From positions 1 to 43,409 of the forward strand of contig JBFHQA010000001.1 of NCBI GenBank assembly GCA_041592455.1: 43,409 nt of DNA, given 5' to 3'. This document shows, piece after piece, positions 9,148 through 35,851 of the stretch. Under the pieces are notes generated by a model. The model worked only from the letters and a program-made list of their open reading frames with translations. It did not search any database and was not told where the DNA came from. The position numbers and the translations under genes are program-made. The DNA comes from Thiobacillus sp. (GTDB lineage: Bacteria > Pseudomonadota > Gammaproteobacteria > Burkholderiales > Thiobacillaceae). The first letter of the stretch is position 1; each line of letters starts with the position of its first letter.

Positions 9148-9176
9148 GATTGAATTCTGTATTTTTCCTGATCAGC

Positions 9177-13766: not shown

Positions 13767-14922
13767 GCGCGCCCAGCGCGTGACCGAAACCGGGATCGTC
13801 CCGGTTTCCGCTTCGCTGGGGCGCGTGCTGGCCGTGCCGCAAACCTCGACGATCACCGTGCCGCCGGCGGACAACAGCGCGATGGACGGCTACGCCGTGC
13901 GCGTGGCCGACGTGGCGACGGCGGGCGTCCGGCTGCCGGTGTCGCAGCGCATCATGGCCGGCGCCGTGGGCCAGCCGCTGCAGCCCGGCACGGCCGCGCG
14001 CATCTTCACCGGCGCGCCCGTTCCGCCGGGGGCCGACGCGGTGCTGATGCAGGAGTTCTGCTCGGCCGAGGGCGACCAGGTGGTCGTCAATTCGGTGCCC
14101 CATCCGGGCGAGAACATCCGCCGCGCCGGCGAGGACGTCGAGGCCGGGGCAGAAATCCTCGCCGCCGGCACGCGCATCGGCGCGGCGGAAATGGGGCTCG
14201 CCGCTTCGGTGGGCCTGGCCGAACTGCCGGTGTATCGCCGCCTGAAGGTCGCCTGCTTCTTTACCGGCGACGAACTGGTGACGCCGGGCGTGCCGCTGGC
14301 CCCCGGCCAGATCTACAACTCCAACCGCTATACGCTGACGGGTCTTATAAACGACCTGGGCTGCGAACTGATCGACCTCGGCATCGTGCCCGACACGCTG
14401 GAAGACACCGAGGCCGTGCTGGCGCGGGCCGCCCGCGAAGCCGACGTGGTGGTGACCAGCGGCGGGGTGTCGGTCGGCGAGGCAGACTATGTGAAAACGG
14501 CCGTCGAAAAGCTCGGCCAGGTCGAGATGTGGAAAGTGGCGATGAAGCCCGGCAAGCCGGTGGTATACGGACGCGTCGGCGGCGCCGATTTCATCGGCCT
14601 GCCCGGCAACCCGGTGTCGGCCTTCGTGACCTTCTGTCTGTTCGTGCGGCCGTTTCTGCTCACGCGCATGGGCGCGTCCGACGTGCTGTATCGCGCCTAT
14701 GCGATCCAGGCGGATTTTGCCTGGCCGCGTCCCGGCACCCGCCGCGAGTTCCTGCGCGCGAGCCTGCAGCCCAGCGGCAAGCTGGCGCTGTTTCCCAACC
14801 AGAGCTCGGGCGTGCTGACCTCGTGCGCGTGGGCCGACGGCCTGGTCGACCTCGAAGTCGGCCATACGGTGCGACCGGGTGACTGGGTGCGCTTCATTCC
14901 CTTCTCGGAGTTGCTGAAATGA
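13729..14922 (+). CDS. moeA: Molybdopterin molybdotransferase
   Basis: SAMDGYA, IFTGAPVP.GAD, TGDEL, TSGGVSVGEAD, KPGKP and LPGNPVS. Confidence 0.96.
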   Translation: MLSAAQLLDNLLERAQRVTETGIVPVSASLGRVLAVPQTSTITVPPADNSAMDGYAVRVADVATAGVRLPVSQRIMAGAVGQPLQPGTAARIFTGAPVPPGADAVLMQEFCSAEGDQVVVNSVPHPGENIRRAGEDVEAGAEILAAGTRIGAAEMGLAASVGLAELPVYRRLKVACFFTGDELVTPGVPLAPGQIYNSNRYTLTGLINDLGCELIDLGIVPDTLEDTEAVLARAAREADVVVTSGGVSVGEADYVKTAVEKLGQVEMWKVAMKPGKPVVYGRVGGADFIGLPGNPVSAFVTFCLFVRPFLLTRMGASDVLYRAYAIQADFAWPRPGTRREFLRASLQPSGKLALFPNQSSGVLTSCAWADGLVDLEVGHTVRPGDWVRFIPFSELLK

Positions 14923-15170
14923 ACGTGCGCGTGCTGTATTTCGCCCGTTTGCGCGAACGCTTCGGCTGCGCAGAAGAACAGGTCGTACTGGACGGCGCGA
15001 CGGTGCGTGACCTGGTCGCGCTGCTGCAGGCGCGCGGCGGCGTGTGGGCCGAGGAGCTGGCAGCGGGCCGCGCGTTCCGCGTGGCCGTCAACCAGGACAT
15101 CGTGACGCCCGACGCGACCGTGCCGGACGGCGCCGAGGTCGCGATCTTTCCGCCGGTGACCGGAGGCTGA
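14919..15170 (+). CDS. moaD: Molybdopterin synthase sulfur carrier subunit
   Basis: VLYFARLRE, VAVNQ and C-terminal FPPVTGG. Confidence 0.96.
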   Translation: MNVRVLYFARLRERFGCAEEQVVLDGATVRDLVALLQARGGVWAEELAAGRAFRVAVNQDIVTPDATVPDGAEVAIFPPVTGG

Positions 15171-15174
15171 TCCC

Positions 15175-15630
15175 ATGAAAATCGTCGTCCAGACCGAGGC
15201 GTTCGACCTCGGCACCGAAGTCGATGCCCTGCGCGCAAGCCGCACCGACATCGGCGCCATCGCCAGTTTCGTCGGCCTGGCGCGCGACATGAACGAAGGC
15301 AGCGGGGTTTCGGCGATGACGCTGGAGCACTATCCCGGCATGACCGAAAAGGCGCTCGCCGCGCTGGTCGACGATGCGCGCGCGCGCTGGTCCCTGCTCG
15401 ACGTGACCGTGGTCCATCGGGTGGGACGCCTGCTGCCGGGCGATCCTATCGTGCTCGTCGCCGTGGCCAGCAGCCATCGCGGCGAGGCCTTCGCCGCCTG
15501 CGAATTCATCATGGATGCCCTCAAGACCCGCGCGCCGTTCTGGAAGAAGGAAGAGACGCCAGAAGGCGAGCGCTGGGTCGAGGCACGCGCCAGCGACGAC
15601 GCGGCGGCGGCGCGCTGGTCCGAGTCCTGA
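15175..15630 (+). CDS. moaE: Molybdopterin synthase catalytic subunit
   Basis: LEHYPGM, HRVG.L, HRGEAF and LKTRAPFWKKE. Confidence 0.96.
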   Translation: MKIVVQTEAFDLGTEVDALRASRTDIGAIASFVGLARDMNEGSGVSAMTLEHYPGMTEKALAALVDDARARWSLLDVTVVHRVGRLLPGDPIVLVAVASSHRGEAFAACEFIMDALKTRAPFWKKEETPEGERWVEARASDDAAAARWSES

Positions 15631-15706
15631 TCGTCCCTCAAGCCCAACCTCGGGGCGTGCTCGCACGTTCGCCCCGGCACTGATTTCTCGCAGTTTTCCG
15701 ATTCCC

Positions 15707-15723
15707 TGCACTAAGCCAGTGCT
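15707..15723. promoter_or_regulatory. Candidate enhancer-binding-protein site (NtrC-like GCAC-N7-GTGC)
   Basis: TGCACTAAGCCAGTGCT about 105-120 bp upstream of a sigma-54 -24 box, the usual enhancer distance. Confidence 0.4.
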
Positions 15724-15825
15724 GCCCATGCAGCGCTGAGCATCCCTGTTTCGTCCGCACCTGATCACGCTCAAAGCCAGTATTCATCGGGCTTTCCGAT
15801 GAATCTTCATGCTTGTCGATAAAGT

Positions 15826-15841
15826 TGGCACGTGTGTTGCT
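15826..15841 (+). promoter_or_regulatory. Sigma-54 (-24/-12) promoter of the gntR operon
   Basis: TGGCACG-TGTG-TTGCT is a perfect match to TGGCACG-N4-TTGCW (GG 15827-28, GC 15839-40). Confidence 0.85.
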
Positions 15842-15842
15842 G

Positions 15843-15864
15843 TGTCATTACACGTCATGACAAG
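15843..15864. promoter_or_regulatory. Putative GntR operator (two tandem 10-bp dyads TGTCATTACA / CGTCATGACA)
   Basis: Immediately downstream of the -12 box, spanning the expected transcription start; overall dyad TGTCAT-N8-ATGACA; recurs at 23422-23443. Confidence 0.7.
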
Positions 15865-15883
15865 TTATGGAGCGTGCACTGAA

Positions 15884-16645
15884 ATGACCACACCCCGGAA
15901 AAAGCATCCTGCCGCGTTGCAGGTATCGCCGGTCCCGCTGTACACGCAGATCAAGGAGATTCTGCGAGACCGCATCCTCGACGGCACCTACCAGGCGCAC
16001 GAACAGATGCCGTCGGAAAGCGAGCTGATGAGCACCTTCGGCGTGTCGCGCATCACCGTGCGGCAGGCCCTGGGCGACCTGCAGAAGGAAGGCCTGATCT
16101 TCAAGATCCACGGCAAGGGCACCTACGTCTCCAAGCCGAAGGCGTTCCAGAACGTGGCGACGCTGCAGGGCTTTGGCGAGGCGATGTCTAGCATGGGCTA
16201 CGAGACCTTCTCGCGCGTGGTCGGCGTCAAGAACCTGCCGGCGAAAGCGGCAGTCGCGGCGAGGCTGGGCGTTCAGGAGGGCGAGGAGATCGTCGAACTG
16301 CGCCGCGTGCGCTACCTCAACCGCGCCCCGATCTCGCTCGACGTGACGTATGTGCCCAAGAGCATCGGCGAGCGCCTCGCCAAGGAAGACCTCGCGCACC
16401 GCGACGTGTTCCTGATCCTGGAAAACGACTACGGCATTGCGCTCGGCGCAGCCGAACTGCAGATCGAATCGATGCTGGCGGACGACTATCTCGCCCGCCA
16501 GTTGCAGATCGAGGAGGGCGCCCCGGTGTTGCGGATCGAGCGCCTGACCCTCACGGCCGATGGCCGACCGATTGATTTCGAATACCTGTATTACCGCGGA
16601 GATGCCTTCCAGTACCGGATGCGCATCGAGCGGTCCCACGTCTAG
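15884..16645 (+). CDS. GntR family (HutC/UTRA subfamily) transcriptional regulator
   Basis: PLYTQIKE, PSESEL..FGVSRITVRQAL, GKGTYV and a UTRA-like C-terminus (YYRGD.F). Confidence 0.93.
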   Translation: MTTPRKKHPAALQVSPVPLYTQIKEILRDRILDGTYQAHEQMPSESELMSTFGVSRITVRQALGDLQKEGLIFKIHGKGTYVSKPKAFQNVATLQGFGEAMSSMGYETFSRVVGVKNLPAKAAVAARLGVQEGEEIVELRRVRYLNRAPISLDVTYVPKSIGERLAKEDLAHRDVFLILENDYGIALGAAELQIESMLADDYLARQLQIEEGAPVLRIERLTLTADGRPIDFEYLYYRGDAFQYRMRIERSHV

Positions 16646-16654
16646 GAGACCTGT

Positions 16655-18385
16655 ATGAACGAAGTGATTGCGGAAGTGGATGTGCTGGTGATCGGCGGCG
16701 GCACGGCGGGCCCGATGGCCGCCGTCAAGGCCAAGGAAAAGAACCCGGCGCTCAAGGTGATGCTGCTGGAGAAGGCGAACGTGAAGCGCAGCGGCGCCAT
16801 CTCGATGGGCATGGACGGACTCAACAACGCGGTGATACCCGGCCATGCCACTCCCGAGCAGTACGTCAAGGAAATCACCGTGGCCAACGACGGCATCGTC
16901 AACCAGAAGACGGTGATGGCCTACGCGCAGGAAAGCTTCAACATGATCAACCAGCTCGACCGCTGGGGCGTCAAGTTCGAGAAGGACGAGACCGGCGACT
17001 ACGCGGTGAAGAAGGTCCATCACATCGGCACCTACGTGCTGCCGATGCCGGAGGGCCACCACATGAAGAAGGTGCTCTACCGCCAGCTCAAGAAGGCGCG
17101 CGTCGAGATCACCAATCGCTACATGGCGACGCGCCTGCTGCTCGACGCGAACGGCGCGATTGCCGGTGCGATGGTGCTCGATACGCGCGAGGGCACGTTC
17201 GGCGTGATCCGCGCCAAGTCGGTGATCCTCTGCACGGGCGCGGCCGGCCGGCTTGGCCTGCCGTCCTCGGGCTACCTTTTCGGCACCTACGAGAACCCGA
17301 CCAACGCGGGCGACGGCTACTCGCTGGCCTACCACGCAGGCGCGGAGCTCTCGGGCATCGAGTGCTACCAGATCAACCCGCTGATCAAGGACTACAACGG
17401 CCCGTCGTGCGCATACGTCACCGGCCCGTTCGGCGGCTACACCGCCAACTCGAAGGGTGAGCGTTTCATCGAGTGCGACTACTGGAGCGGCCAGATGATG
17501 ATGGAGTTCTACAAGGAACTCGAAGGCGGTAACGGCCCGGTCTTCCTCAAGATGAATCACCTGGCCGAGGAAACGATCGGCACCATCGAGCACATCCTGC
17601 ATACCAACGAGCGTCCCAGCCGCGGTCGCTTCCACGAAGGCCGGCATCTCGATTACCGCAACGGCATGGTCGAGATGCATATCTCGGAAATCGGCCTGTG
17701 CAGCGGCCACTCGGCGTCGGGCGTGTGGGTCGACGAAACCGCGGCGACTACGGTGCCGGGTCTCTACGCGGCTGGCGACCTCGCCTGCGTGCCCCACAAC
17801 TACATGCTCGGTGCGTTCGTGTACGGCAAGTTCGCCGGTGAAAGCGCGGCCGACTATGCGATGACGCATGCGCTGCCTGCGGTCGACGCCGTGCAGGTCG
17901 AGGCCGAGCGCAAGCGCGTGCTGGGTCCGCTGTCGAATCCCGAAGGCCTGCCGCCCAGCCAGGTCGAGTACAAGCTGCGCCGCTTCGTGAACGACTACCT
18001 GCAGCCGCCCAAGGTGACGAAGAAGATGGAGATCGGCCTCGACCGCTTCGCTGAAATCGGCGCCGATCTGCCGGCGATGTCGGCCACGAACCCGCACGAA
18101 CTCATGCGCGCCATGGAAGTGCATTTCATCCGCGACTGCGCGGAAATGGCGGCGCGTGCGTCGCTCTATCGCACCGAGTCACGCTGGGGGCTCTACCACT
18201 ACCGCGTCGAGCATCCCGACAAGAACGACGCCGACTGGTTCTGCCACGCCCAGCTGAAGAAGTCCGATGCAGGCGAGATGACCTGCTTCAAGCGACCCAT
18301 CGATCCCTACATCGTCGAGCTCGATGACGAGGAAAAGGACGCCTACAACCGCCTGCGCGTCGTCAAGCAGGCAGAAGCCGCCTAA
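16655..18385 (+). CDS. FAD-dependent reductase, Sdh/Frd/AprA flavoprotein superfamily (AsfA-like)
   Basis: DVLVIGGGTAG FAD motif; KRSGAISMGMDGLN resembles the AprA RSGAVAQGLSAIN segment; GLYAAGD; RTESRWG. No SHT..AQGG covalent-His motif of SdhA/FrdA. Confidence 0.85.
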   Translation: MNEVIAEVDVLVIGGGTAGPMAAVKAKEKNPALKVMLLEKANVKRSGAISMGMDGLNNAVIPGHATPEQYVKEITVANDGIVNQKTVMAYAQESFNMINQLDRWGVKFEKDETGDYAVKKVHHIGTYVLPMPEGHHMKKVLYRQLKKARVEITNRYMATRLLLDANGAIAGAMVLDTREGTFGVIRAKSVILCTGAAGRLGLPSSGYLFGTYENPTNAGDGYSLAYHAGAELSGIECYQINPLIKDYNGPSCAYVTGPFGGYTANSKGERFIECDYWSGQMMMEFYKELEGGNGPVFLKMNHLAEETIGTIEHILHTNERPSRGRFHEGRHLDYRNGMVEMHISEIGLCSGHSASGVWVDETAATTVPGLYAAGDLACVPHNYMLGAFVYGKFAGESAADYAMTHALPAVDAVQVEAERKRVLGPLSNPEGLPPSQVEYKLRRFVNDYLQPPKVTKKMEIGLDRFAEIGADLPAMSATNPHELMRAMEVHFIRDCAEMAARASLYRTESRWGLYHYRVEHPDKNDADWFCHAQLKKSDAGEMTCFKRPIDPYIVELDDEEKDAYNRLRVVKQAEAA

Positions 18386-18395
18386 GGAGAACACC

Positions 18396-18629
18396 ATGCC
18401 CATGACTTTGAACCGGGTGGCTGTGCCCGTGACCGTGAACGAGGAAGCGTGCATCGCCGACAAGGGCTGCACGGTGTGCGTCGAATCCTGCCCGCTCGAT
18501 CTGCTGGCGATCGATCCCGCGAAGCAGAAGGCGTACATGCGATTCGACGAATGCTGGTACTGCCTGCCGTGCGAGAAGGATTGCCCGACCCAGGCAATCC
18601 GCGTCGACATCCCTTACCTGTTGCGTTGA
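18396..18629 (+). CDS. 2x[4Fe-4S] ferredoxin (AprB/AsfB-like)
   Basis: CIADKGCTVCVESCP and CWYCLPCEKDCP; AAGGAG before ATG 18396. Confidence 0.9.
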   Translation: MPMTLNRVAVPVTVNEEACIADKGCTVCVESCPLDLLAIDPAKQKAYMRFDECWYCLPCEKDCPTQAIRVDIPYLLR

Positions 18630-18639
18630 GGAGATTTGC

Positions 18640-19590
18640 ATGATTCCAGCCACCCAATCTCTCGATTTGCGCAACCGCCTGTCGAACAGCGATCCCGAGG
18701 TGCGGCGCATCGCGGTCATGGACCTGCTCGACAGCGACGAGGACGACATCGAACTCTGCCTGCTCGACGCACTGAAGGATGAGGACGCCATGGTGCGGGC
18801 CGAGGCCGCGCGCCTGCTGGAAGGCTACGAAAGTTCCGAGGTCGTCGAAGGGCTGATCGGCGCGCTGGGCGACGCCAGCGAGGAGGTACGCGCTGCCGCA
18901 GCGGTCTCGCTGTCCGAGCTCAAGGAGGCCTCGATGGGCGACGGCCTGCTCGACGCGCTGCCGCGGTCGTCCTCGCCTTTCATGCTGGCCGCGCTGTTTC
19001 GCGCCTTGCGCGAGCTGCGCCGGCCCGAAGCATTCTCGCCAGCACTCGCTGCACTGGCCGCACCGGAGGCGGACGTGCGTTGCGCCGCACTCGGGGTGCT
19101 GGGCTACCTGAAGAACCCGGCTGCGCTTCCCGCAATCGCCCAAGTCGCGGGCAGCGACGCCGACGTCGAGGCCAGGCGCATTGCCATCGGCGCGCTCGGC
19201 TTTGCGACCGAGCTCGACGCGGTCGTGCCGGCCATGAAGCGCGCGCTGACCGACGCGTCGTGGCAGGTGCGCGAGGAAGCCGCCGCCACGCTCGGCAAGC
19301 TGCTGGCCGCGGAGGCGGTCGACGACCTGATGGCCGCGATGGCCGATCCCTACTGGCAGGTTCGGCTCAAGGCCGCCCGCAGTCTGGGGCGAATCAAGGC
19401 GAAACCTGCCTTGCCGGTGCTCATCGAGGCCCTGGGACACGAGATGAGCAACCTGCGCAAGGAGGCGGCGGTCGCGCTCGGCGAAGTCGGAGACGTCGCC
19501 GCGATTCCCGCGCTCGAGCATGCCCTGTCCGACAGCGATCCCGACGTGCGCAAGCTGGCGCGCCTGGCGCTGACTCAACTCACCCAATGA
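18640..19590 (+). CDS. HEAT-repeat (PBS lyase-like) protein
   Basis: Repeated ~31-aa units of the form L.D.d.eVR.eAA.aLG along the whole protein. Confidence 0.9.
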   Translation: MIPATQSLDLRNRLSNSDPEVRRIAVMDLLDSDEDDIELCLLDALKDEDAMVRAEAARLLEGYESSEVVEGLIGALGDASEEVRAAAAVSLSELKEASMGDGLLDALPRSSSPFMLAALFRALRELRRPEAFSPALAALAAPEADVRCAALGVLGYLKNPAALPAIAQVAGSDADVEARRIAIGALGFATELDAVVPAMKRALTDASWQVREEAAATLGKLLAAEAVDDLMAAMADPYWQVRLKAARSLGRIKAKPALPVLIEALGHEMSNLRKEAAVALGEVGDVAAIPALEHALSDSDPDVRKLARLALTQLTQ

Positions 19591-19600
19591 GGAGCATGAA

Positions 19601-19936
19601 ATGGCTTATGTCGTAGCGGAACCCTGCATCAAGTGCAAATACGGCGATTGCGTGCCGGTGTGCCCGGTGGACGCATTCCACGAAGGTCCGAATTTCATGG
19701 TGATCGATCCAGGTGAGTGCATCGACTGCTCGCTGTGCGTCGACGAATGCCCGGCCGGCGCGATCTTCGACGAGGCCAAGCTGCCCGAGGCGTACTCGCA
19801 CTACGTCCAGCTCAACGCCGAGCTGACCCAGGTCTGGCCGCTGGTCAAGGACAAGCCGGAGCCGCTTCCGGACGCCGACGACTGGGTCGATGCGACGGAC
19901 AAGTTTCAGTTTCTCGAAAGGATGGAGGCGGCCTAA
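19601..19936 (+). CDS. fdxA: FdxA / Azotobacter FdI-type low-potential ferredoxin with C-terminal extension
   Basis: CIKCKYGDCVPVCPVD, CIDCSLCVDECP and LNAEL..WP......PLPDADDW tail. Confidence 0.88.
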   Translation: MAYVVAEPCIKCKYGDCVPVCPVDAFHEGPNFMVIDPGECIDCSLCVDECPAGAIFDEAKLPEAYSHYVQLNAELTQVWPLVKDKPEPLPDADDWVDATDKFQFLERMEAA

Positions 19937-20036
19937 CGCCCATGCGCGGTGCGGCCGTCCGGCGTGATGCACCAGGCCGATCCGGTCCGGGCGTTGCGGA
20001 GGGCGGAAACCCCAGACAAAAGCGCAGGGCAGTGCA

Positions 20037-20052
20037 TGGCACAAAGGTTGCA
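20037..20052 (+). promoter_or_regulatory. Second sigma-54 promoter, upstream of the ABC transporter genes
   Basis: TGGCAC-AAAGG-TTGCA with correct GG/GC spacing (GG 20038-39, GC 20050-51), 48 bp before the ATG. Confidence 0.8.
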
Positions 20053-20099
20053 AAGCAAGTGAACGTGGTCCCTTAGTCAAACAGGAAGGAAAGCACAAC

Positions 20100-21560
20100 A
20101 TGAGCAAGATCCCGCAATTCAATCCTCGCAAGTCAGTATTCAGGCAGATGGCAACGGTCCTGGCCTTCATCGGTGCGGCAGGCAGCGCAGGCGCCTTTGC
20201 CGAAACCGTGACGGTCGGCATCGGTACGCAGAACACGACGACCAATACCGTGACCGGCGGCATCGTCATCGAAAAGCTCGGACTGATGAACAAGTATCTC
20301 GCCGAACTCAAGAAGACGCCCAAGTACAAGGACATCGACTTCAAGCTCGACTGGCAGAACTTCACGTCCGGACCGCCCGTGACCAACGGCATGGTCGCGA
20401 ACAAGCTGCAGATCGGGATGATGGGCGACTACCCGCTGCTCGTGAACGGCGCGACCTTCCAGGCCGGGAGCGAGACCAAGAGCGAGCTGATCGCGCTGAT
20501 CGCCTACAACCTCAACGGCGCGGGAAATGGCATGGTCGTGCACAAGGATTCGCCGTACTACGAGCTTTCCGACCTAAAAGGCAAGAAGGTCTCGGTCCCG
20601 TTCGGCTCCGCCGCTCACGGCATGCTCTTGAAGGCGATGGAAGACCGAGGCTGGAAGGACGACTTCTGGGACCTGGCGAGCCAGAGTCCGGAGGTGGGAA
20701 CGACCAACCTGCAGGAACGCAAGATCGACGGCCACGCCGACTTCGTGCCCTTTGCCGAGCTGCTGCCCTACCGCGGATTCGCCCGCAAGATCTTCGACGG
20801 CGTCGAAACCAGGGTGCCGACCTTCCACGGCATCGTCGCGCGCAAGGACTTTTCCGACAAGTATCCCGAGTTCGTGGTGGCCTACCTGAAGGCGCTTCTC
20901 GACGCGAACGACTGGGTGCGCAAGAACCCGGCGCTCGCGGCGACCAAGATCGAGGAATGGACCAAGATCGAGAAGGAAGTCGCCTACATGTTCCTCGGCC
21001 CCAGCGGTGTGCACACGCTCGACCCGACCATCAAGCCGAAGTGGATCGAGACGGTGAAGTACGACCATGGCGTGCTGCAGCGCATGGGTCGCGTGAAGGA
21101 CTTCAATGCCGATATCTGGGGCAACGAGACCTTCATCCGCCAGGCTTTCAAGGAAAAGGGCCTCGACTACGACAAGCAGAAGGCGAGCTACGCCAGCTAC
21201 GAGATCAGCGGTACCGACACGCTGTGCAAGAAGCCGATCAAGACGCCGCGTGAAGGCGGTGAAGTCTGGATCGAGGGCGGCGGCATCACGGCCTACAGCT
21301 CGACCTCGTGCACGCTGGCTGGCGTCAAGAAGGCGCTGTCCGAGGGCAAGAAGATCGGTGTCGCGTTCGTGTTCGACAAGACCACCGGCATCAAGCTGTT
21401 CGCCGACAAGGCCTTCTACGCGCTGAATGCGAAGAACCCGAAACAGATCGAGATCGTGCCCTTCCTGCTGAAGAAGGACGCCGAATCCTGGGCAGCCAAG
21501 CGGGGCGGGCGTCTGGCTTCGTACACCGACGTGCTGGCCGTCGCCAAGGTAGGAGGGTAA
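20100..21560 (+). CDS. ABC transporter substrate-binding protein (SsuA/TauA/NrtA-like, AsfC-like) with extra C-terminal domain
   Basis: Signal peptide ending in AFA; WQNFTSGPP, GMMGDYP and LKGKKVSVPFGSAAH; about 115 extra C-terminal residues. Confidence 0.88.
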   Translation: MSKIPQFNPRKSVFRQMATVLAFIGAAGSAGAFAETVTVGIGTQNTTTNTVTGGIVIEKLGLMNKYLAELKKTPKYKDIDFKLDWQNFTSGPPVTNGMVANKLQIGMMGDYPLLVNGATFQAGSETKSELIALIAYNLNGAGNGMVVHKDSPYYELSDLKGKKVSVPFGSAAHGMLLKAMEDRGWKDDFWDLASQSPEVGTTNLQERKIDGHADFVPFAELLPYRGFARKIFDGVETRVPTFHGIVARKDFSDKYPEFVVAYLKALLDANDWVRKNPALAATKIEEWTKIEKEVAYMFLGPSGVHTLDPTIKPKWIETVKYDHGVLQRMGRVKDFNADIWGNETFIRQAFKEKGLDYDKQKASYASYEISGTDTLCKKPIKTPREGGEVWIEGGGITAYSSTSCTLAGVKKALSEGKKIGVAFVFDKTTGIKLFADKAFYALNAKNPKQIEIVPFLLKKDAESWAAKRGGRLASYTDVLAVAKVGG

Positions 21561-21563
21561 ATC

Positions 21564-22508
21564 ATGCGATCCGCAACCAATCTGAGTATCGTCGCCGGCG
21601 CTGAGGCCGGCGAAGCGGAAGAGCCGAACCTGGCGCTTGCCCCGAGGCCGGCAGCGGAGAAGCCCGCCCCCGAGCCCGCCCGGTCGGTCGAGGTTCCGGC
21701 CCGGCGTGTTGCAGGCTGGTTGCGGAGCGCGCTTCCGAAGGTGCTGATGACGACGATCTCGCTCGGCCTGTTCGTCGCCTTCTGGTACTTCGCCACGCTG
21801 TACAAGCTCGACTTCTATGTCCGCTTCACCAACATCCCGAGCCCTGTCGAGGTGTGGGACAACGCGACCCGGCTCGCGCAGAGCGACAAGTTCTACGAGA
21901 ACATGTACGTGAGCCTGCGCCGGATCCTGATCGGCTTCGGCGTGGCGACCGTGCTGGGCGTCGCGCTGGGGCTGCTGATCGGGCAGTACCGGGCCGCCAG
22001 GGCGCTGTTGTTCCCGTTGTTCGAGACGCTGCGCCCGATTCCGGCGATCGCCTGGGTACCGATGGCGATCATGCTCTGGCCGACCAACGAGACCAGCATC
22101 GTGTTCATCACCTTCCTCGGGTCGTTCTTCCCGATCCTGCTCAACACCATCCACGGCGTGAACAGCGTCGATCCGGTGCTGCTGCGCGCCGCGCGCTGCC
22201 TCGGCACGACGGAGTTCGGGTTGCTGCGGCAGGTCGTCCTGCCGGCGTCGCTGCCACACATCTTCACCGGCCTTGCGATCGGGATGGGCGTGGCATGGGT
22301 GTCGCTGATCGCGGCCGAGATGATTTCGGGTCAGTTCGGCATCGGCTACTTCACCTGGGAAGCGTATTCGCTGATCGAGTACGCCGACATCGCCATCGGC
22401 ATGATCGTGATTGGCGTGCTCGGATTGCTTTGCAGCGGCGGCATCCGCGTGCTCGGCAACGTGCTGATGCCGTGGACCGCAGGTTCGACGCATGGAGGAC
22501 AGAAATGA
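21564..22508 (+). CDS. ABC transporter permease (SsuC/TauC-like)
   Basis: SLRRI..GF, LRPIPAIAWVP, EAA-like loop (LRAARCLG), LPASLPHIFTG and AAEM. Confidence 0.92.
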   Translation: MRSATNLSIVAGAEAGEAEEPNLALAPRPAAEKPAPEPARSVEVPARRVAGWLRSALPKVLMTTISLGLFVAFWYFATLYKLDFYVRFTNIPSPVEVWDNATRLAQSDKFYENMYVSLRRILIGFGVATVLGVALGLLIGQYRAARALLFPLFETLRPIPAIAWVPMAIMLWPTNETSIVFITFLGSFFPILLNTIHGVNSVDPVLLRAARCLGTTEFGLLRQVVLPASLPHIFTGLAIGMGVAWVSLIAAEMISGQFGIGYFTWEAYSLIEYADIAIGMIVIGVLGLLCSGGIRVLGNVLMPWTAGSTHGGQK

Positions 22509-23383
22509 AGACGCAAGACGACAAGCCAGCCGGGGCGACCGGTCATATCAAGGTGGATCACCTGCGCGTGCGCTTCGGCCGCAACGCCGAGGCCGTCGAG
22601 GCCGTCAGCGACGTGTCGATGGAGGTGAAGCCGGGTGAGTTCGTTTCCATCATCGGCCCCTCGGGATGCGGCAAGTCGACGCTGCTCAACGTGGTGGCAG
22701 GCTTCGTCCTGCCGAGCGAGGGGTTGGTGACCATGGACGGCAAGGCAACCGACAAGCCCGGTGCCGACCGCGGCATGGTGTTCCAGCAGTACTCGCTTTT
22801 TCCCTGGCTCACGGTGCGCAAGAACGTGGAGTTCGGGCTCAAGCAGAAGGGGCTGGACGCCAACCGGCGCGAGGAGGCCGCCCGTACGCTGCTTGGGCTG
22901 GCGGGGCTTCTCGCCTTCGAGAACCACTATCCCGAGCAGCTTTCGGGCGGCATGAAGCAGCGCGTGGGCATCGTTCGTGCGCTGGCGACAAGTCCGCAGG
23001 TGCTGTTGATGGACGAGCCGTTCGGCGCGCTCGACGCGCAGACGCGCGTGGTGATGCAGCAGATTCTCACCAACATGTGGCAACGCTTCCGCATCTCGGT
23101 GCTCTTCATCACCCACGACATCGACGAGAGCATCTTCCTGTCGGACCGCGTCTATGTGATGACCGCCCGGCCAGGCCGCATCAAGGCGGAAGTCGAGATT
23201 CCGCTGCCGCGCCCGCGCACCCCTGACATGGCGCTGAGCCCGGAGTACCTGCAGATCAAGCAGCAACTGCGCGACCTGATCGCCGAAGAGAGTCTCAAGG
23301 CGATGGGCGGCGAGCTCAAGGACAGCGGGCTGGCCGGTTTCGACGTCGAGGTCGGTCCCAAGGGCGTCGCAGAACTCGTCTGA
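22505..23383 (+). CDS. ABC transporter ATP-binding protein (SsuB/TauB-like)
   Basis: GPSGCGKST, LSGGMKQR, LLMDEPFGALD and ITHD. True start ATG 22505 overlaps the permease stop (ATGA). Confidence 0.94.
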   Translation: MKTQDDKPAGATGHIKVDHLRVRFGRNAEAVEAVSDVSMEVKPGEFVSIIGPSGCGKSTLLNVVAGFVLPSEGLVTMDGKATDKPGADRGMVFQQYSLFPWLTVRKNVEFGLKQKGLDANRREEAARTLLGLAGLLAFENHYPEQLSGGMKQRVGIVRALATSPQVLLMDEPFGALDAQTRVVMQQILTNMWQRFRISVLFITHDIDESIFLSDRVYVMTARPGRIKAEVEIPLPRPRTPDMALSPEYLQIKQQLRDLIAEESLKAMGGELKDSGLAGFDVEVGPKGVAELV

Positions 23384-23387
23384 CCAC

Positions 23388-23413
23388 TCAGCCGGGAAAC
23401 CGGCCTGATTTTT
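23388..23413 (+). terminator. Probable intrinsic terminator after the ABC ATPase
   Basis: GCCGG-GAAA-CCGGC stem with GNRA loop followed by CTGATTTTT. Confidence 0.55.
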
Positions 23414-23421
23414 CGGCACCA

Positions 23422-23443
23422 CTTGTAATGACATGTCCTGTCA
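23422..23443. promoter_or_regulatory. Second putative GntR operator
   Basis: CTTGTAATGACATGTCCTGTCA matches the reverse complement of 15843-15864 at 17/22 positions and includes an exact TGTAATGACA 10-mer. Confidence 0.65.
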
Positions 23444-23461
23444 AATCGGAAAGGAAACACC

Positions 23462-26400
23462 ATGACGCCGACCCTGGAACTGAATCTTGAAGGCTTCGAT
23501 CACGCCGATTTCTTCCGACCGGAGCGGCTGCCCGATCTCGATCGGCAGTTCGATGCCTGGCTCGTGCGCCGCGACGCCGAACTGCGTGCCCGCTACCAGG
23601 ATTACCGCGGCGGCGCCTCGCTTGCGCGGCCCGAGGAGTCGGAGCTGCTGATCTCGGTTGCCCGCGAACTCGAAGACTTCCTGGTCGCGATGTTCGGCGT
23701 CGCCGCCTCGCGCGACGCGTTGCGGGCTGCGCAGGAACGCGAGGCCGTCGTGCATGCGTTCAAGCGTGAATTCGTCAAGCGCCGCATCCGCAAGAAGCGG
23801 TCCGAGCCGACGCATGGTTTCGACGAACTCGACCGCCAGATCCCTTCATGGCCTGACGCCGACCGCGAGTTGAGCGTGGCACGGTTCTGGGCTGAGGCCG
23901 AGCGCGCGGGCGATGCGTCGCAACTGGCGCTGCTGGAAGCGTGGCTGCATGCCGCGTGCGACAGCGAAGCGGGCAGGGCGGCGACGTCATCCTGGGTCAG
24001 CCTCACGCTGCCGACGGCGACCGATTTCTTCAAGCTGGTGCCGATCGTGCCGGTGGCCGTCGACTCCGCGGGCCGGGTCGAGGGAGCGACAGCCGCGCGC
24101 CGGCGTGACGGATTCGCCCTGACCGACCCGCGGCGCGGCTTGCGCGAAACGATGGACCAGGTCCATTACTGCGTCTACTGTCACGACCACGCGGGCGACG
24201 TCTGCTCGCACGGCTTCCCGGCGAAGGAAGGCGAGGGGTTCCGTGCCAACCCGCTCGACGTCACGCTGTCGGGCTGCCCGCTTGAGGAGCGCATCTCCGA
24301 AGCGCACACGCTCAAGCGTGACGCCTACACGCTAGGCGCGCTGGCCATGATCATGCTCGACAACCCCTTGCTGCCCGCCACCGGGCATCGCATCTGCAAC
24401 GACTGCATGAAGAGCTGCATCTACCAGAAGCAGGATCCGGTCAACATTCCCGAGATCGAGACGCGCATTCTCACCGATGTGCTGGCGTGGCGCTGGGGTT
24501 TCGAACTGTACTTCCTGCTCACGCAGTGGAATCCGCTCAATCGCACGCGTCCCTATCGGCTGCCGTATAACGGTCGCAACACGCTGTGCGTGGGCGCCGG
24601 TCCCGCAGGCTTCAATCTCTCGCATCACCTGCTGCAGGAGGGGTTCGGCGTGGTCATCGCCGACGGACTCAAGATCGAGCCGCTGCCGCCCGAATGGTGC
24701 GATGCCAGTGGGCGCCCGACGTTGCCGGTGGAGAGCGTCGAGACGCTCTGCCAGTCGCTCGACGAACGTGCGTCGTCGGGCTTTGGCGGCGTCGCGGAGT
24801 ACGGGATCACGGTACGCTGGGACAAGAACTTCCTGACCTTGATTCGCCTGGTGCTCGAACGCCAGTCCACGTTCCGCATGTACGGCGGCATCCGCCTGGG
24901 CGGCACCATCACGCTCGAGGACGTGCCGGCGCTCGGCTTCGATCATGTCACGCTCGCAACGGGCGCCGGTCGTCCCACGGTGCTGAAGATGCGCAACAAC
25001 ATGGCACGCGGCATGCGCCAGGCGAGCGATTTCCTGATGGCGCTGCAGCTCACCGGCGCGGCGCGGCGCGACAGCCTCGCCAACCTGCAGGTGCGCCTTC
25101 CGGCGGTCGTGGTCGGCGGAGGGCTCACCGCGATCGATACGGCGACCGAGGTCCAGGCCTACTACGTGCGCCAGGTGGAGAAGGTGCTGTCCCGCTGGGA
25201 GGCGGTCGGCGAAACGGCCGGTGGCGCATTCGACGCGTACGAACGCGACGTGCTGGAAGAGTTTCTTGCGCACGGACGCGCGGTACGCGCGGAACGCGAA
25301 CGCGCGCAGCAAATGGGAGAGGCGCCCGATTTCTCGCGGCTGATTCGCGCCTGGGGCGGCGTGACCGTCGTCTATCGCCGCGCCATGTCCGATTCGCCGG
25401 CCTATCTGCGCAATCACGAAGAGATCGCGAAAGCGCTGGAAGAGGGCATCTACTATGCCGAACGCCTGGAGCCGACCGAAGCCGTGCTCGACCCCAACGG
25501 ACATGTGCAGGCGCTGCGCTGCACGCACGGCGGAAGCGGCGAAACCGTCACCCTGCCAGCACGTGCCGTACTGGTGGCAGCCGGCAGCATTCCCAATACC
25601 GTATACGAGCGCGAGCATCCCGGCACCTTCGAGATGGACGGCAAGTTCTTCGCGGCCTATCGCATCGACGCGCAGACCGGGGAGATGGTCCGCGTGCCGA
25701 CAGCAGGCCACAACAAGGCTGCGCAGCCAGGGTTCTTCACGTCCTATCGTGCCGGCGACCTGCGGGTCTCGTTCGTCGGAGACAACCACCCATGGTACCA
25801 CGGCAGCGTCGTCAAGGCGATGGCGTCGGCCAAGCACGCCGCGCGCGACATTTCGGCGTGGCTGCTGCGGCGCACCGGCAGTCGCGCGCCTGAATCCTTC
25901 GCCCCCTTCGCGGCCGCGCTCGACGATGCGCTGTGCCCCCAGGTAGTGGCCGTCGAGCGCATGGCGCCGCACCTCACAAGCCTGACCGTGCGTGCGCCGC
26001 AGGCCACGCGGCACTGGCTGCCGGGCCAGGTGTACCGGCTGCAGAACTTCGAGCGCCACGCGCAAAGACTGGGCGGACAGACGCTCGCCATGGAGGGCAT
26101 GGCGATCGATGGGGTGCACGTCGACCCGGCGCGCGGCGAGGTGCAGGTGCTCATCAACAGCGTGGGCGTGTCGAGCCGCATTGCAGCGTCGCTCAAGCCG
26201 GGGGCAAGGGTGATCCTGATGGGCCCCACGGGCACCGGATTGCCGGTCCCGGACAACTCGACCGTGACCGTGGCCGGCGGCCATTCAGCTGTGACCAGTA
26301 CCGTCGACGGTGCCGCCATGTGGCGCGCGGCCGGCAACCGCATCGTCTTCATCGGCCACTTTCGCGACGCCGCGCGGGCACGCGCCGTGCAGCGCGCGAT

Positions 26401-26971
26401 CGAGATCCTGACCGATCAGGCGATCTGGGTGCTCGACGAGGGTCCCGCGCTCGTTACACGCCGTCAACAGGATGCCTGCTTCGTTCACGGACTCGATGAT
26501 TTCCTGCTGTCTTGCGCCGAGATGGACGCGCCATTCTCGGAATGGGTGCGGCGTACCGACGAACTGATCCTGTCGGATCACCCGGCCGCGATGGAGACCT
26601 TCCGCGGCATGCTGCGCGGCAAACTCAAACCTCTGCTGAAGCCGGCTTTCAAGGCCACGGCGGCCGTGAATAGCCCGATGCAATGCATGATGAAGGAGGT
26701 CTGCGCCCAGTGCCTGTGCCGGCATGTCGACAGCGCGACCGGCGAGCCGTCGCGGTTCGTGTTCTCGTGCTTCAACCAGCATCAGCCGCTGTTCGATCTC
26801 GATTTCGAAAACCTGCAGGCGCGCCAGGGGCAGAACAGCGTGCAGGAAAAGCTCGCAAACGCCTGGCTCGGCCGCCTGATGGAGCAGGACGCGGTCTCGG
26901 GTGCCGATGCGGTCGCGACGAGCAATGCGGCCGAGCCACTGCAGCGGCTCGACCCGCCCTCAGTCCGTTGA
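23462..26971 (+). CDS. Fused GltD/NfnB-like + FNR/NfnA-like Fe-S flavoprotein oxidoreductase
   Basis: N-part: CVYCH....C, GCP, RICNDCMKSC (GltD-type [4Fe-4S] sites), VGAGPAG, GGGLTAID and YRR. C-part: PGQVYRLQ, MGPTG and PMQCMMKEVCAQC...FSC ([2Fe-2S] motif of PyrK/NfnA). Confidence 0.85.
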   Translation: MTPTLELNLEGFDHADFFRPERLPDLDRQFDAWLVRRDAELRARYQDYRGGASLARPEESELLISVARELEDFLVAMFGVAASRDALRAAQEREAVVHAFKREFVKRRIRKKRSEPTHGFDELDRQIPSWPDADRELSVARFWAEAERAGDASQLALLEAWLHAACDSEAGRAATSSWVSLTLPTATDFFKLVPIVPVAVDSAGRVEGATAARRRDGFALTDPRRGLRETMDQVHYCVYCHDHAGDVCSHGFPAKEGEGFRANPLDVTLSGCPLEERISEAHTLKRDAYTLGALAMIMLDNPLLPATGHRICNDCMKSCIYQKQDPVNIPEIETRILTDVLAWRWGFELYFLLTQWNPLNRTRPYRLPYNGRNTLCVGAGPAGFNLSHHLLQEGFGVVIADGLKIEPLPPEWCDASGRPTLPVESVETLCQSLDERASSGFGGVAEYGITVRWDKNFLTLIRLVLERQSTFRMYGGIRLGGTITLEDVPALGFDHVTLATGAGRPTVLKMRNNMARGMRQASDFLMALQLTGAARRDSLANLQVRLPAVVVGGGLTAIDTATEVQAYYVRQVEKVLSRWEAVGETAGGAFDAYERDVLEEFLAHGRAVRAERERAQQMGEAPDFSRLIRAWGGVTVVYRRAMSDSPAYLRNHEEIAKALEEGIYYAERLEPTEAVLDPNGHVQALRCTHGGSGETVTLPARAVLVAAGSIPNTVYEREHPGTFEMDGKFFAAYRIDAQTGEMVRVPTAGHNKAAQPGFFTSYRAGDLRVSFVGDNHPWYHGSVVKAMASAKHAARDISAWLLRRTGSRAPESFAPFAAALDDALCPQVVAVERMAPHLTSLTVRAPQATRHWLPGQVYRLQNFERHAQRLGGQTLAMEGMAIDGVHVDPARGEVQVLINSVGVSSRIAASLKPGARVILMGPTGTGLPVPDNSTVTVAGGHSAVTSTVDGAAMWRAAGNRIVFIGHFRDAARARAVQRAIEILTDQAIWVLDEGPALVTRRQQDACFVHGLDDFLLSCAEMDAPFSEWVRRTDELILSDHPAAMETFRGMLRGKLKPLLKPAFKATAAVNSPMQCMMKEVCAQCLCRHVDSATGEPSRFVFSCFNQHQPLFDLDFENLQARQGQNSVQEKLANAWLGRLMEQDAVSGADAVATSNAAEPLQRLDPPSVR

Positions 26972-27376
26972 GCGCGACTCGCTGGCGCGTTCCGGCAGGG
27001 GGCAGGCCGCCGGCTTGCCCTGCCACAGCGGCCGGACCTTGAGGAAGAACCGATAGCCCCACTCCAGTGTGTGCACCATGCCCGGCAGCGCGGCGAGCCG
27101 TCCCGCGGCGCGAAACGCCGGCAAGGCCTGCCAAAGCGCGGCGAACGCCGCGGCCCCTGAAATCAATTCGCCTTCAGGGCGCCGGGCATGCAGTCGGGCA
27201 TAGGCTGCCTCGCGGCTCAATCCCTCGCCCAACTCCTGATCCTCGCAATGTGCGAGGTTCACCCATTGAATCCTTTCGGCTCCACGCCGACGCCGGTAGA
27301 AGCCGATCTCGCGCGTGCAGACGGGGCAGCCGCCGTCGTAGTACACGGTCAACAGGGGCAGGGTGTGAGCGTTCAT
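26960..27376 (-). CDS. DUF393 / DCC family thiol-disulfide oxidoreductase-like protein
   Basis: VYYDGGCPVC, LHA and SGAAAF..LW; overlaps the end of the convergent oxidoreductase by 12 bp. Confidence 0.88.
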   Translation of the reverse strand: MNAHTLPLLTVYYDGGCPVCTREIGFYRRRRGAERIQWVNLAHCEDQELGEGLSREAAYARLHARRPEGELISGAAAFAALWQALPAFRAAGRLAALPGMVHTLEWGYRFFLKVRPLWQGKPAACPLPERASESRSTD

Positions 27377-27450
27377 GAGGTCAGTCTATCTCGGCAAGCG
27401 GGTTCAAGGAATGGAGCGCCAGGCGCGGCGAAGGTTCCTCAGGGCCATGC

Positions 27451-27497
27451 TTGACATTGGTTCTAACTAGAATTAAAGTTGTTCGTGTTAGAACCAA
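27451..27497 (+). promoter_or_regulatory. Sigma-70 promoter overlapped by a MarR-type operator
   Basis: TTGACA-17bp-TAAAGT; perfect 11-bp inverted repeat TTGGTTCTAAC (27457-27467) / GTTAGAACCAA (27487-27497), readable as two GTTC-N6-GAAY boxes. Confidence 0.75.
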
Positions 27498-27507
27498 ATA
27501 TGACACC

Positions 27508-27951
27508 ATGAAAGCGCGCCCGACCCCCTTCCTGCCGACCCTGCAAGCCCTGGCCCAGTGCTATCAGGCTTTCGAGGCTTTTTCGGGCGCGCACATTCGC
27601 GAACTGGGACTGACGCCGCCGCAGTTCGACATCGTGGCCACGCTCGGCAACACCGCCGGCATGACGGCGACCGAACTCGGCGAGAAGACGCTGATCACCA
27701 AGGGCACGCTCACCGGCGTGGTCGACCGCCTGGCGGCGCGCGGACTGGTCGAGCGCATCGCGCACGAGCGCGATGGCCGTTGCCAGATCGTCCGGTTGAC
27801 GCCCGAGGGAGAGGCGCTGTTTGAGCAGGTGTTTCCCGCCCACCTTGCACAGGTCGCGCGGCAATTCGCCGGCGCGGACAAGGGCGACTACGCGCGCTGG
27901 GAGTCCGCCCTGCGCTCGCTCGAGCAGGTATTCAGAAAGGAGATCGCATGA
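27508..27951 (+). CDS. MarR family transcriptional regulator
   Basis: GLTPPQFDI, ITKGTLTGVVDRL..RGLVER and D.R...V.LT.EG. Confidence 0.93.
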   Translation: MKARPTPFLPTLQALAQCYQAFEAFSGAHIRELGLTPPQFDIVATLGNTAGMTATELGEKTLITKGTLTGVVDRLAARGLVERIAHERDGRCQIVRLTPEGEALFEQVFPAHLAQVARQFAGADKGDYARWESALRSLEQVFRKEIA

Positions 27952-28496
27952 ATCCGATGGGTCGTTACACCCGGCCTGCCATCGTGCTGCACTGGCTGGT
28001 CGCGCTGCTGATCTTCGTGGCGTTTCCGCTTGGCGTGTACATGCACGAGTTGCCCCTGTCGCCCGGCAAGCTCCAGCTCTACAGCTATCACAAGTGGATC
28101 GGCATCACGATCCTGATGCTGGCGTCGCTGCGCGTGGTGTGGCGGCTGACGCACACGCCGCCTGCGCTGCCGGACTCCATTTCCGGCTGGCAGCGCCGCG
28201 CGAGCCAGGTCGTCCATGGCCTCCTGTACCTGCTGATTCTTGCGATCCCGCTGTCGGGCTGGCTGATGAGCTCGGCCAAGGGCTTCCAGACGGTGTGGTT
28301 CGGCGTGCTGCCGCTGCCCGACCTGGTCGGCAAGGACAAGGCGCTGGGTGAACAGCTGGCAGAGCTGCACCAGATTCTGAACTTCATCCTGCTGTTCCTG
28401 GTCATCCTGCACGTCGGGGCGGCGCTCAAGCACCAGTTCATGGAACGCCTGCCTTTCATGCAGCGCATGGGGTGGGGCGGAAAGGAGTCATCATGA
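27948..28496 (+). CDS. Cytochrome b561 (YceJ/CybB-like)
   Basis: Four TM helices with heme-ligand His (LHW, YHKWIG, LHQ, LHVGAALKHQF); followed by yceI genes. Confidence 0.92.
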   Translation: MNPMGRYTRPAIVLHWLVALLIFVAFPLGVYMHELPLSPGKLQLYSYHKWIGITILMLASLRVVWRLTHTPPALPDSISGWQRRASQVVHGLLYLLILAIPLSGWLMSSAKGFQTVWFGVLPLPDLVGKDKALGEQLAELHQILNFILLFLVILHVGAALKHQFMERLPFMQRMGWGGKESS

Positions 28497-29053: not shown

Positions 29054-29086
29054 CCCGTTGTTCGAATTCACGTCATGGAGATCTCA

Positions 29087-29668: not shown

Positions 29669-29727
29669 CACACGGCGCATCCGGCAGTCCGGGCGCGCTG
29701 GCGTAAAATAGCGTTTTGCTGTCCGGA

Positions 29728-35787: not shown

Positions 35788-35851
35788 ATGACAGATTTTC
35801 CATCAACAGGCGCGGTTCAATCCTGAAATTCATGAAAGTAATAAGCATCCC

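Follow-up and report, generated by a model that had tools for sequence, protein, structure and literature searches.

A Thiobacillus gene cluster joining an AprA-like flavoprotein to an interchangeable ferredoxin-reductase slot, with promoter motifs of a nitrogen regulon

Introduction

The closest described relatives of the system considered here, nine co-oriented genes within a 43,409-nucleotide stretch of Thiobacillus sp. DNA (contig JBFHQA010000001.1, positions 1 to 43,409; hereafter the window), are AprAB, the adenosine 5'-phosphosulfate (APS) reductase (structures 1jnr/2fja and 3gyx), and the AprA-type 3'-phosphoadenosine 5'-phosphosulfate (PAPS) reductase of M. thermolithotrophicus (8a8o). 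The flavin adenine dinucleotide (FAD) subunit of these enzymes aligns over its full length with the cluster's flavoprotein, the adjacent gene encodes a 2x[4Fe-4S] subunit with a CW motif, and the sulfite site keeps its Asn and His; however, the substrate Arg and Tyr are replaced by Leu and Glu, a KVHH insertion is present, the beta subunit has 77 amino acids (aa), a HEAT-repeat partner is added, and an importer takes the place of sat and APS kinase.

The asfRABC genes of Pseudomonas putida S-313 also combine a regulator, a flavoprotein reductase, a ferredoxin and a sulfonate-type binding protein; according to the accessible part of PMC4267179, AsfR is a LysR regulator and asf adds to the ssu monooxygenase when sulfate is limiting, whereas the present cluster has a GntR regulator and sigma-54/NtrC-type promoter elements, and no SsuD-type gene was found in its genome (89.5% complete). 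An earlier note on this DNA had called the flavoprotein and ferredoxin AsfAB-like. As a statement of membership this is not supported, both because the regulator is GntR, not LysR, and because the C. metallidurans CH34 megaplasmid, described as carrying asfRAB in the available text of PMC2864759, matches our flavoprotein at best with E 2.5e-17, its flavoprotein-plus-ferredoxin pair being 25% identical over 244 aa (the record is unannotated, and AsfA is our assignment). Two other loci share more genes. A. baumannii A1S_1717-1722 has the same core (flavoprotein 72% identical in a homologous record) without FdxA and reductase, and is presented in the accessible sections of PMC13104710 as polycistronic, GntR-bound and concerned with efflux. 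The A. caldus pTcM1 module has the same nine-gene set (flavoprotein 67% identical in a homologous record), including FdxA, an 1150-aa fusion and sigma-54 and NtrC-type motifs, and is mentioned as a putative organosulfonate module in the part of PMC12375680 that is available.

On the electron-supply side, the fusion protein of the cluster shares two [4Fe-4S] clusters, the flavin Arg, the NADPH motif and the fold with NfnAB/Xfn (5jca, 5vj7, 4ylf), but has a helical N-domain of ~180-210 residues, a four-Cys [2Fe-2S] site, no ERxPxT and an altered NAD loop. The cluster's FdxA is a close homologue of Azotobacter FdI, reportedly the partner of Fpr in an NADPH:ferredoxin reductase couple; Fpr fills the fusion slot in 17/80 homologous loci, whereas the reductase here is a multi-cluster Nfn-like fusion. 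The large-then-small order within one chain is the pattern C order of PMC6405883 (as far as its accessible text goes), and the same architecture is found in the Rickettsiales PRK06567 family, nearly universal in that order according to the available part of PMC3641634.

Here we report that FdxA plus one ferredoxin reductase (Fpr, the Nfn-like fusion or Rnf) is an optional module of this cluster and that nitrogen control, as read from its promoter motifs, is the strongest signal. We tentatively propose that the cluster scavenges an imported N-SO3 compound, probably sulfamate, during nitrogen starvation and cleaves it to ammonium and sulfite, a reading to which we give a little less than even weight. 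The flavoprotein family is common (at least 587 matching stretches; members in Pseudomonas, rhizobia, Acinetobacter, cyanobacteria and actinobacteria) and routinely labelled fumarate reductase, and the core of the cluster, made up of GntR, flavoprotein, small ferredoxin, HEAT protein and importer, is likewise found widely. In the literature we found neither a substrate or reaction for PRK08275 or PRK06567 nor an enzyme that acts reductively on sulfamate, although expression data may be contained in subscription papers and supplements; new with respect to prior knowledge are the optional reductase module, the NtrC-type enhancers, the split between exporter and TauD neighbours, and the predicted binding of the HEAT protein.

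Results and discussion

Promoter and operator motifs of the cluster

The nine genes listed in the earlier note were all recovered in their places on the + strand by open reading frame (ORF) calls in the window, from gntR through the 1169-aa fusion:

15884..16645, + strand: gntR, GntR/HutC-type regulator with GntR and UTRA domains, 253 aa
16655..18385, + strand: flavoprotein, PRK08275-family FAD protein, AprA/PAPS-reductase-like, 576 aa
18396..18629, + strand: small ferredoxin, 77 aa, 2x[4Fe-4S], AprB-like core, CWYC motif
18640..19590, + strand: HEAT-repeat protein, predicted flavoprotein partner
19601..19936, + strand: FdxA, 7Fe ferredoxin resembling Azotobacter FdI
20100..21560, + strand: periplasmic binding protein, N-terminal part TauA/SsuA-related, long C-terminal extension, 486 aa
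21564..22508, + strand: ABC permease, nitrate/sulfonate type (NCBIfam/Pfam)
22505..23383, + strand: ABC ATPase, nitrate/sulfonate type (NCBIfam/Pfam)
23462..26971, + strand: fusion, 1169 aa, PRK06567-like; helical N-domain, NfnL/GltD-like ~180-805, NfnS/PyrK-like ~825-1140

The gntR start was set at 15884, 3' of a GGAG ribosome site; starting at 15809 would give a longer ORF that runs into the promoter. The control elements are as follows:

15707..15723, + strand: NtrC-type enhancer, TGCAC-N7-GTGCT, 119 nt upstream of the first sigma-54 box
15826..15840, + strand: sigma-54 -24/-12 box of the gntR operon, perfect TGGCAC-N5-TTGC, conserved in relatives
15843..15862, no strand assigned: tandem operator TGTCATTACA + CGTCATGACA, likely GntR site
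20037..20051, + strand: second sigma-54 box, before the importer, perfect TGGCAC-N5-TTGC
23424..23433, - strand: second operator copy TGTAATGACA, before the fusion gene, just 3' of a weak hairpin at 23391-23404

Two sigma-54 promoters had been claimed, and two perfect boxes (15826 and 20037) bear this out; both are intergenic, no other perfect box lies in the window, and the 2.6-Mb genome has 15 in all. With one mismatch allowed, the window holds 5 boxes vs. 4.55 by chance, so the two boxes are meaningful only by position and conservation. The NtrC-type site, which the earlier note does not mention, is likewise not above chance within the window taken alone and gains its significance from position and conservation: of 63 distinct sigma-54 promoters from homologous clusters, 55 carry GCAC-N7-GTGC, which we take to be the NtrC consensus, at -80 to -170 with at most one mismatch, vs. 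a mean of 2.9 and a maximum of 7 in 200 mononucleotide shuffles. Relaxed sigma-54 boxes number 862 in this genome, and 12 of them have an NtrC-type site, several probably by chance; these 12 include the cluster promoter, glnA (identified via its translation, with ntrC on the same contig), a NirB-like gene and nitrate ABC genes. We consider nitrogen control of this cluster copy very likely from these motifs, and the earlier emphasis on sulfur scavenging is not supported, the promoter architecture being that of a nitrogen regulon. The same sigma-54 plus NtrC-type architecture was also seen ahead of pgi-like and transglutaminase-like genes (C121:3637 (-) and C11:7955 (-); named from translations).

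The operator is indeed repeated, as had been noted: the 10-mer TGTCATTACA has two copies only in the genome, at 15843 (+) ahead of gntR and at 23424-23433 (-) ahead of the fusion. Across homologous loci the motif lies ahead of gntR in 55/96 clusters and ahead of the fusion in 17/28 cluster-linked copies vs. 2/20 others, one of those two being a cluster fragment (these fusion counts include some loci that duplicate each other), in keeping with the claim that the Nfn-like gene is co-regulated with the cluster. The degenerate operator has a perfect match 12 nt ahead of gntR in an A. baumannii locus, and in a different strain of that species GntR is described as binding such an intergenic region and acting as a two- to fourfold activator (PMC13104710, accessible sections).

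An AprAB-like pair and its predicted HEAT partner

The flavoprotein scores 1080.4 bits against PRK08275 (NF006131), above the curated cut-off of 587, and its closest relatives, among the best 80 of at least 587 matches, are Thiobacillus records 94-95% identical to it. Both structure and family scores support the earlier placement of this protein nearer to PAPS/APS reductase than to Sdh/Frd/NadB: the nearest solved structure is the PAPS reductase 8a8o (E 6.9e-62), followed by APS reductase structures (E 9e-44), vs. E at least 2e-22 for Sdh/Frd structures. An SdhA/FrdA/NadB identity was rejected (163.7 vs. a cut-off of 567.3; nadB, 112.5 vs. 452.75). A Pfam/NCBIfam scan of the operon found no membrane-anchor genes, unlike Sdh/Frd sets, and the motif at the Sdh/Frd covalent-FAD position, RSGAISMG, lacks the His that those enzymes presumably carry there. 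The protein is also below the aprA cut-offs (TIGR02061, 176.8 vs. 641.75; NF005331, 275 vs. 557).

At the flavin-sulfite site, Asn57 aligns with Asn74 of A. fulgidus AprA and His352 with the GGH His of 8a8o, residues that we take to serve this site, and both are invariant in 41 homologues. The APS-binding residues are gone: Arg265, Tyr95 and Gln145 of A. fulgidus (numbering counted from the printed alignment), the first two presumably substrate contacts, align with Leu243, Glu73 and Val128, Leu243 standing in for the Arg of the FxxR motif. The Gln145 assignment is from the accessible part of PMC10322725. Also invariant in the 41 homologues are Asp54, Glu73, Glu319, Lys120-His123, Cys252 and Cys349, with His122, His123 and His316 as further invariant residues, and a five-residue KVHH insertion distinguishes the family from AprA-type enzymes. 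These roles were judged by alignment; the kept Asn and His and the lost Arg suggest that the flavoprotein may work like an APS reductase, yet is not an APS reductase.

The 77-aa small ferredoxin has eight Cys and a CWYC aligned to the CWEC of AprB, that is, two [4Fe-4S] clusters and the bridging Trp; it comprises the AprB-like core, with the C-terminal tail absent, and together with the flavoprotein forms a variant of the AprAB kind. The HEAT protein matches positions 612-896 of the fused family PRK13800, which make up its C-terminal third. A complex of the HEAT protein with the flavoprotein is predicted (score 0.78 vs. 0.00 for the best of 3 controls), formed through hairpin 102-115 of the flavoprotein, with at least 64% of contacts shared between runs and a partner predicted local distance difference test (pLDDT) score of at least 89. 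The mark for this score, roughly valid for the alignments used here, is reached by 116/157 solved pairs and 2/215 mismatched pairs.

FdxA and an interchangeable reductase slot

FdxA is above its family cut-off (NF045490, 141.9 vs. 135) and matches the ferredoxin structure 2fd2 with E 1.9e-42. We surveyed the neighbourhoods of the best 80 of at least 587 flavoprotein matches, a sample that leans to close relatives because the best-scoring loci were chosen; the 61 whose downstream sequence reaches at least 8 kb are called long loci here, and the 19 shorter ones were set aside. Data rows for PA2298/PA2299, whose orthology is presumed, were left out of the evidence. Among the 80 loci the fusion is present in 15, Fpr in 17 and Rnf in 4, and no locus has two reductases. 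A reductase is found in 30 of the 61 long loci, 29 of them with FdxA (FdxA+Fpr 15, FdxA+Nfn-like 12, FdxA+Rnf 2; the remaining one has an Nfn-like gene with a divergent ferredoxin), and the other 31 have neither FdxA nor reductase. The co-occurrence of Nfn-like and fdxA genes with the flavoprotein, which a neighbourhood survey had been proposed to look for, is therefore real, but the module is optional (31/61 long loci do without) and its reductase interchangeable.

Within the genus Thiobacillus, the fusion occurs in 20/113 genomes and the flavoprotein in 16/113, and all 16 carry both, which agrees with the view that the Nfn-like gene is conserved together with the cluster; in the four genomes with the fusion alone, the sequence is a contig end or what a deletion left behind. 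In G004 (L134:2631-3729) the cluster is deleted with gntR and fusion remnants left, and in G288 (L104:5197-8644) a frameshift near residue 740 breaks the cluster copy of the fusion in two, with a stand-alone copy kept. In a class-wide draw of 400 genomes (one flagged unpublished), the fusion family is present in 92/400 and the flavoprotein in 8/400. The 7 other flavoprotein genomes of this draw have the fusion adjacent (4 genomes, 3 of which also keep a stand-alone copy) or rnf directly after fdxA (3 genomes). Stand-alone fusion genes showed no conserved neighbours in 16 regions, read by eye, except one fdxA. In a quick tree of 38 proteins the cluster label changes three times, so the fusion was probably recruited into the cluster repeatedly, about three times by this tree. 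In the class draw, the fusion (92/400) and Fpr (78/401, one query, E at most 1e-40) share 4 genomes vs. 17.9 expected, an overlap counted by eye among kin that are not independent; the stand-alone fusion may be a housekeeping ferredoxin-NADP reductase where Fpr is missing.

Other variations were seen among the loci. Rnf-type clusters (L127, L128, L038, L062, L071) have an SCO1/SenC gene between importer and gntR, joined in L127 and L128 by a c-type cytochrome and an unknown membrane protein. DUF971 (57/80), Mrp/ApbC (8/80) and EtfB (5/80) genes accompany some of the 80 loci, and all are absent from this window's copy.

The Nfn-like fusion protein

The best family of the fusion is PRK06567 (NF005128; E 6e-161), with 537.5 bits, below the cut-off of 1072, and by its domain order it appears to be a non-rickettsial branch of the PRK06567 architecture. 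A model built from an alignment (pLDDT 89.8) matches NfnI/Xfn large subunits, the NfnI small subunit and GltD by Foldseek/VIA, NfnI (Z 26.4, rmsd 2.6, 437 aligned) being tied with the glutamate synthase beta subunit (Z 26.1). The large module keeps seven Cys and a Glu for two [4Fe-4S] clusters (C237, C240, C248, C272, C312, C315, C319 and E333), flavin Arg452 (the counterpart of NfnI Arg201 in the alignment) and YRR as NADPH motif, none of which is diagnostic of bifurcation because they are shared with non-bifurcating GltD-type proteins. In the small module, the Asp-ligated [2Fe-2S] motif DGTGMCGxCR is absent, with SPMQCMMKEVCAQC...C (four Cys) present, and the ERxPxT strand is absent, with MEGMAID in its place (Nfn motifs from the accessible text of PMC6405883). 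Its NAD loop reads GGHSA in this clade where the Nfn pattern is GGGxG; the loop is GGGLG in Burkholderiales cluster copies and several stand-alone copies, with other variants elsewhere.

Because Fpr and Rnf can occupy the same slot, NAD(P)H:ferredoxin reductase activity is to be expected of the fusion, which we regard as a sound reading, and the slot swap is the first functional handle in this analysis on a PRK06567-type fusion. The Fpr/Rnf swaps, the 31/61 long loci with no reductase and the missing Asp-ligated motif together make bifurcation unnecessary; it is possible for this fusion, but the suggestion that it forms part of the pathway is not supported. As a side observation, a 912-aa database protein (P0087) has FdxA joined directly to the fusion without its N-terminal third, either a natural fusion or an assembly artefact.

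Importer and sulfur-related neighbours

The binding protein scores 102.8 against SsuA_fam, below the cut-off of 163.5, and matches TauA (6ssy) with E 1.8e-16; the importer is by its family matches probably of the taurine/sulfonate class, and a periplasmic binding protein marks the transport direction as import. No TauD or luciferase-like family was found among the 35 window ORFs scanned, as had been reported of SsuD/TauD genes; PF00296 has no match in the genome as assembled (89.5% complete), and TauD has one (contig C180).

The reductase-positive and reductase-negative long loci differ in their neighbours: a YeiH/TauE sulfite/sulfate exporter is present in 14/30 vs. 0/31, TauD in 0/30 vs. 12/31, and a sigma-54 box in 24/30 vs. 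3/31. These groups follow lineage, so they represent few events, not 61 independent ones. A cyanobacterial cluster ends in YeiH and TauE. These results suggest that the cluster enzyme has two uses, nitrogen scavenging with the sulfur discarded, and sulfur scavenging. Inspection by eye of the top ORF clusters from the 80 loci showed no recurring deaminase or transaminase gene, and the product should therefore be directly assimilable.

Some operons have inserted genes. A Sulfotransfer_3 gene and a second ABC importer lie inside the operon at three positions in four genomes (L118:9449-13353, L119:11914-15764, L120:9778-13630, L017:5109-8884), and a further Sulfotransfer_3 copy adjoins the flavoprotein in L148. 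In L105 (5687-10540), a TauA-like importer, an ArgE/DapE-like deacylase and an allophanate-hydrolase-like amidase lie between ATPase and fusion and could feed N-acylated substrates. A reverse-sulfotransferase route, in which sulfate would be transferred to 3'-phosphoadenosine 5'-phosphate and the resulting PAPS reduced, was considered and rejected as the core route: 1/80 of the closest sulfotransferase metagenome loci lies by a flavoprotein, and the nucleotide Arg is gone.

A proposed route and its rivals

We reasoned from four features, namely nitrogen and sulfur obtained from one substrate, no extra catabolic gene, a taurine-class importer and an attack on SO3, that the substrate would be an N-sulfonate, the simplest being sulfamate. 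NtrC and sigma-54, whose motifs are observed, would switch the operon on at nitrogen limitation, GntR at the shared operator would add substrate control, and the ABC importer would take up the anion. Electrons would pass from NAD(P)H through the fused Nfn-like protein, whose slot equivalence is observed, to FdxA, then to the AprB-like ferredoxin and the FAD; a ferredoxin supply line to the AprAB-like pair, as the earlier note had it, is still the best reading, and we judge ferredoxin-driven reduction by the flavoprotein system likely. Breaking an N-SO3 bond that is not activated should call for a stronger reductant than APS does, and this would account for the ferredoxin line. The reduced flavin N5 would attack the sulfur as in APS reductase (in 8a8o this is the chemistry given in the available part of PMC10322725), the rebuilt, more acidic pocket would protonate the leaving amine, and the HEAT protein is predicted to be a bound subunit or assembly factor. 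Ammonium would enter the glutamine synthetase-glutamate synthase cycle; sulfite would be oxidised via the host Apr route in Thiobacillus (a genuine aprA is present elsewhere in the genome, on contig C5), leave the cell in carriers of a YeiH/TauE gene, or be assimilated by lineages that scavenge sulfur.

The fullest version of this proposal is that PRK08275, the ferredoxin and the HEAT protein form a three-subunit sulfamate (N-sulfonate) reductase that cleaves N-S to ammonium and sulfite, controlled by NtrC for nitrogen in some lineages and serving sulfur supply in others, and powered in sulfur oxidisers by a single-chain Nfn-like enzyme, maybe bifurcating to a non-NAD+ acceptor; taken whole, we find it conceivable though doubtful. 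If true, N-S cleavage driven by ferredoxin would extend the chemistry of the APS-reductase fold by a new reaction, would link the nitrogen and sulfur cycles, and would provide a fate for sulfamate, which acesulfame degraders release unused (PMC10413263). Even if sulfamate is not the substrate, the nitrogen-regulon result leaves few nitrogen sources as candidates.

Several points weigh against the sulfamate proposal. The second promoter of the window (20037) has no clear enhancer, and NtrC-type motifs alone are no proof of NtrC binding; 16/30 reductase-positive loci, this one among them, are without exporter, and the reductase-negative loci are mostly Pseudomonas while exporter-positive ones are mostly Marinobacter/Halomonas/Stutzerimonas. 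The binding protein resembles TauA/SsuA only distantly and indicates no ligand, the direction of the reaction (reduction vs. oxidation) is read from the partners only, and the pocket roles come from alignment and from A. fulgidus assignments that we presume. A substrate without sulfur would account equally well for the missing sulfate-binding Arg. Acesulfame degraders leave their sulfamate unused (PMC10413263), sulfamate use in a yeast goes via sulfate, not sulfite, according to the accessible text of PMC5534208, and in A. baumannii the gntR and permease knockouts are described as sensitive to hydrogen peroxide and the transporter as an efflux pump (PMC13104710, accessible sections).

The same machine under the same nitrogen control might act on an amine-bearing O- or S-sulfonate (S-sulfocysteine, choline-O-sulfate, hydroxylamine-O-sulfonate or a thiosulfonate), with sulfite stripped off and the amine part used through general metabolism. 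We think this unlikely: although O- and S-leaving groups suit flavin-N5 attack by established chemistry, invariant Cys252, Cys349 and acids lie near the predicted pocket, and operons with sulfotransferase-family genes and a second importer (G055, G075, G003, L017) or with a TauA-like importer, deacylase and amidase (G501) are on record, no downstream catabolic gene recurs among the 80 loci and a sulfotransferase lies near the flavoprotein in 1/80 of its closest metagenome loci. C-S sulfonates would fit the flavin-N5 mechanism poorly. Replacement of the sulfate-binding Arg, Tyr and Gln equivalents of AprA would also be expected if the enzyme had abandoned sulfite binding and reduced a nitrogen compound at an N-O, N-N, N-P or C=C/C=N bond; nitrogen control, the strongest signal, would suit such an enzyme, and His122, His123, His316, Cys252 and Cys349 could serve other chemistry. 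The YeiH/TauE exporters and TauD neighbours, the taurine/sulfonate-class importer and a nearest structure that is a PAPS reductase, with its Asn/His kept, nonetheless make this version quite unlikely.

That the cluster scavenges sulfur from a sulfonate, ester or polythionate with Nfn-like bifurcation as an essential step seems to us improbable. The seven Cys and Glu, flavin Arg452 and YRR of the fusion, the NfnI-like fold of both its modules, TauD near 12/31 reductase-negative loci and the organosulfonate assimilation predicted for the A. caldus pTcM1 module (PMC12375680, available part) all speak for it, but Fpr or Rnf replaces the fusion, half of the loci have no reductase, the small module has a four-Cys [2Fe-2S] site, no ERxPxT and a GGHSA NAD loop, and control is NtrC-type in a sulfur-oxidising host. 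Least probable in our view is a cluster mainly for redox stress or detoxification (removing a sulfite or N-S adduct or similar), with nutrient gain secondary. The peroxide-sensitive A. baumannii knockouts and the listing of the operon among peroxide-induced genes point that way; the knockouts described in the accessible sections of that report (PMC13104710) are of gntR and the permease, the flavoprotein not being among them, and the periplasmic binding protein, which marks import, and the NtrC/sigma-54 architecture at this locus argue otherwise.

Flanking genes

Upstream of the cluster lie mobB-moeA-moaD-moaE (window 13254-15630) and downstream (26960-31701) a DCC1-like gene on the minus strand, MarR, cytochrome b561, two YceI genes and a U32 peptidase; both flanks recur beside the cluster in several Thiobacillus loci and look like the insertion site, outside the system. 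Lower GC content (0.51-0.60) was found at window positions 9001-12000 and 31001-42000, where GGDEF/EAL, PAS histidine kinase and response-regulator genes lie.

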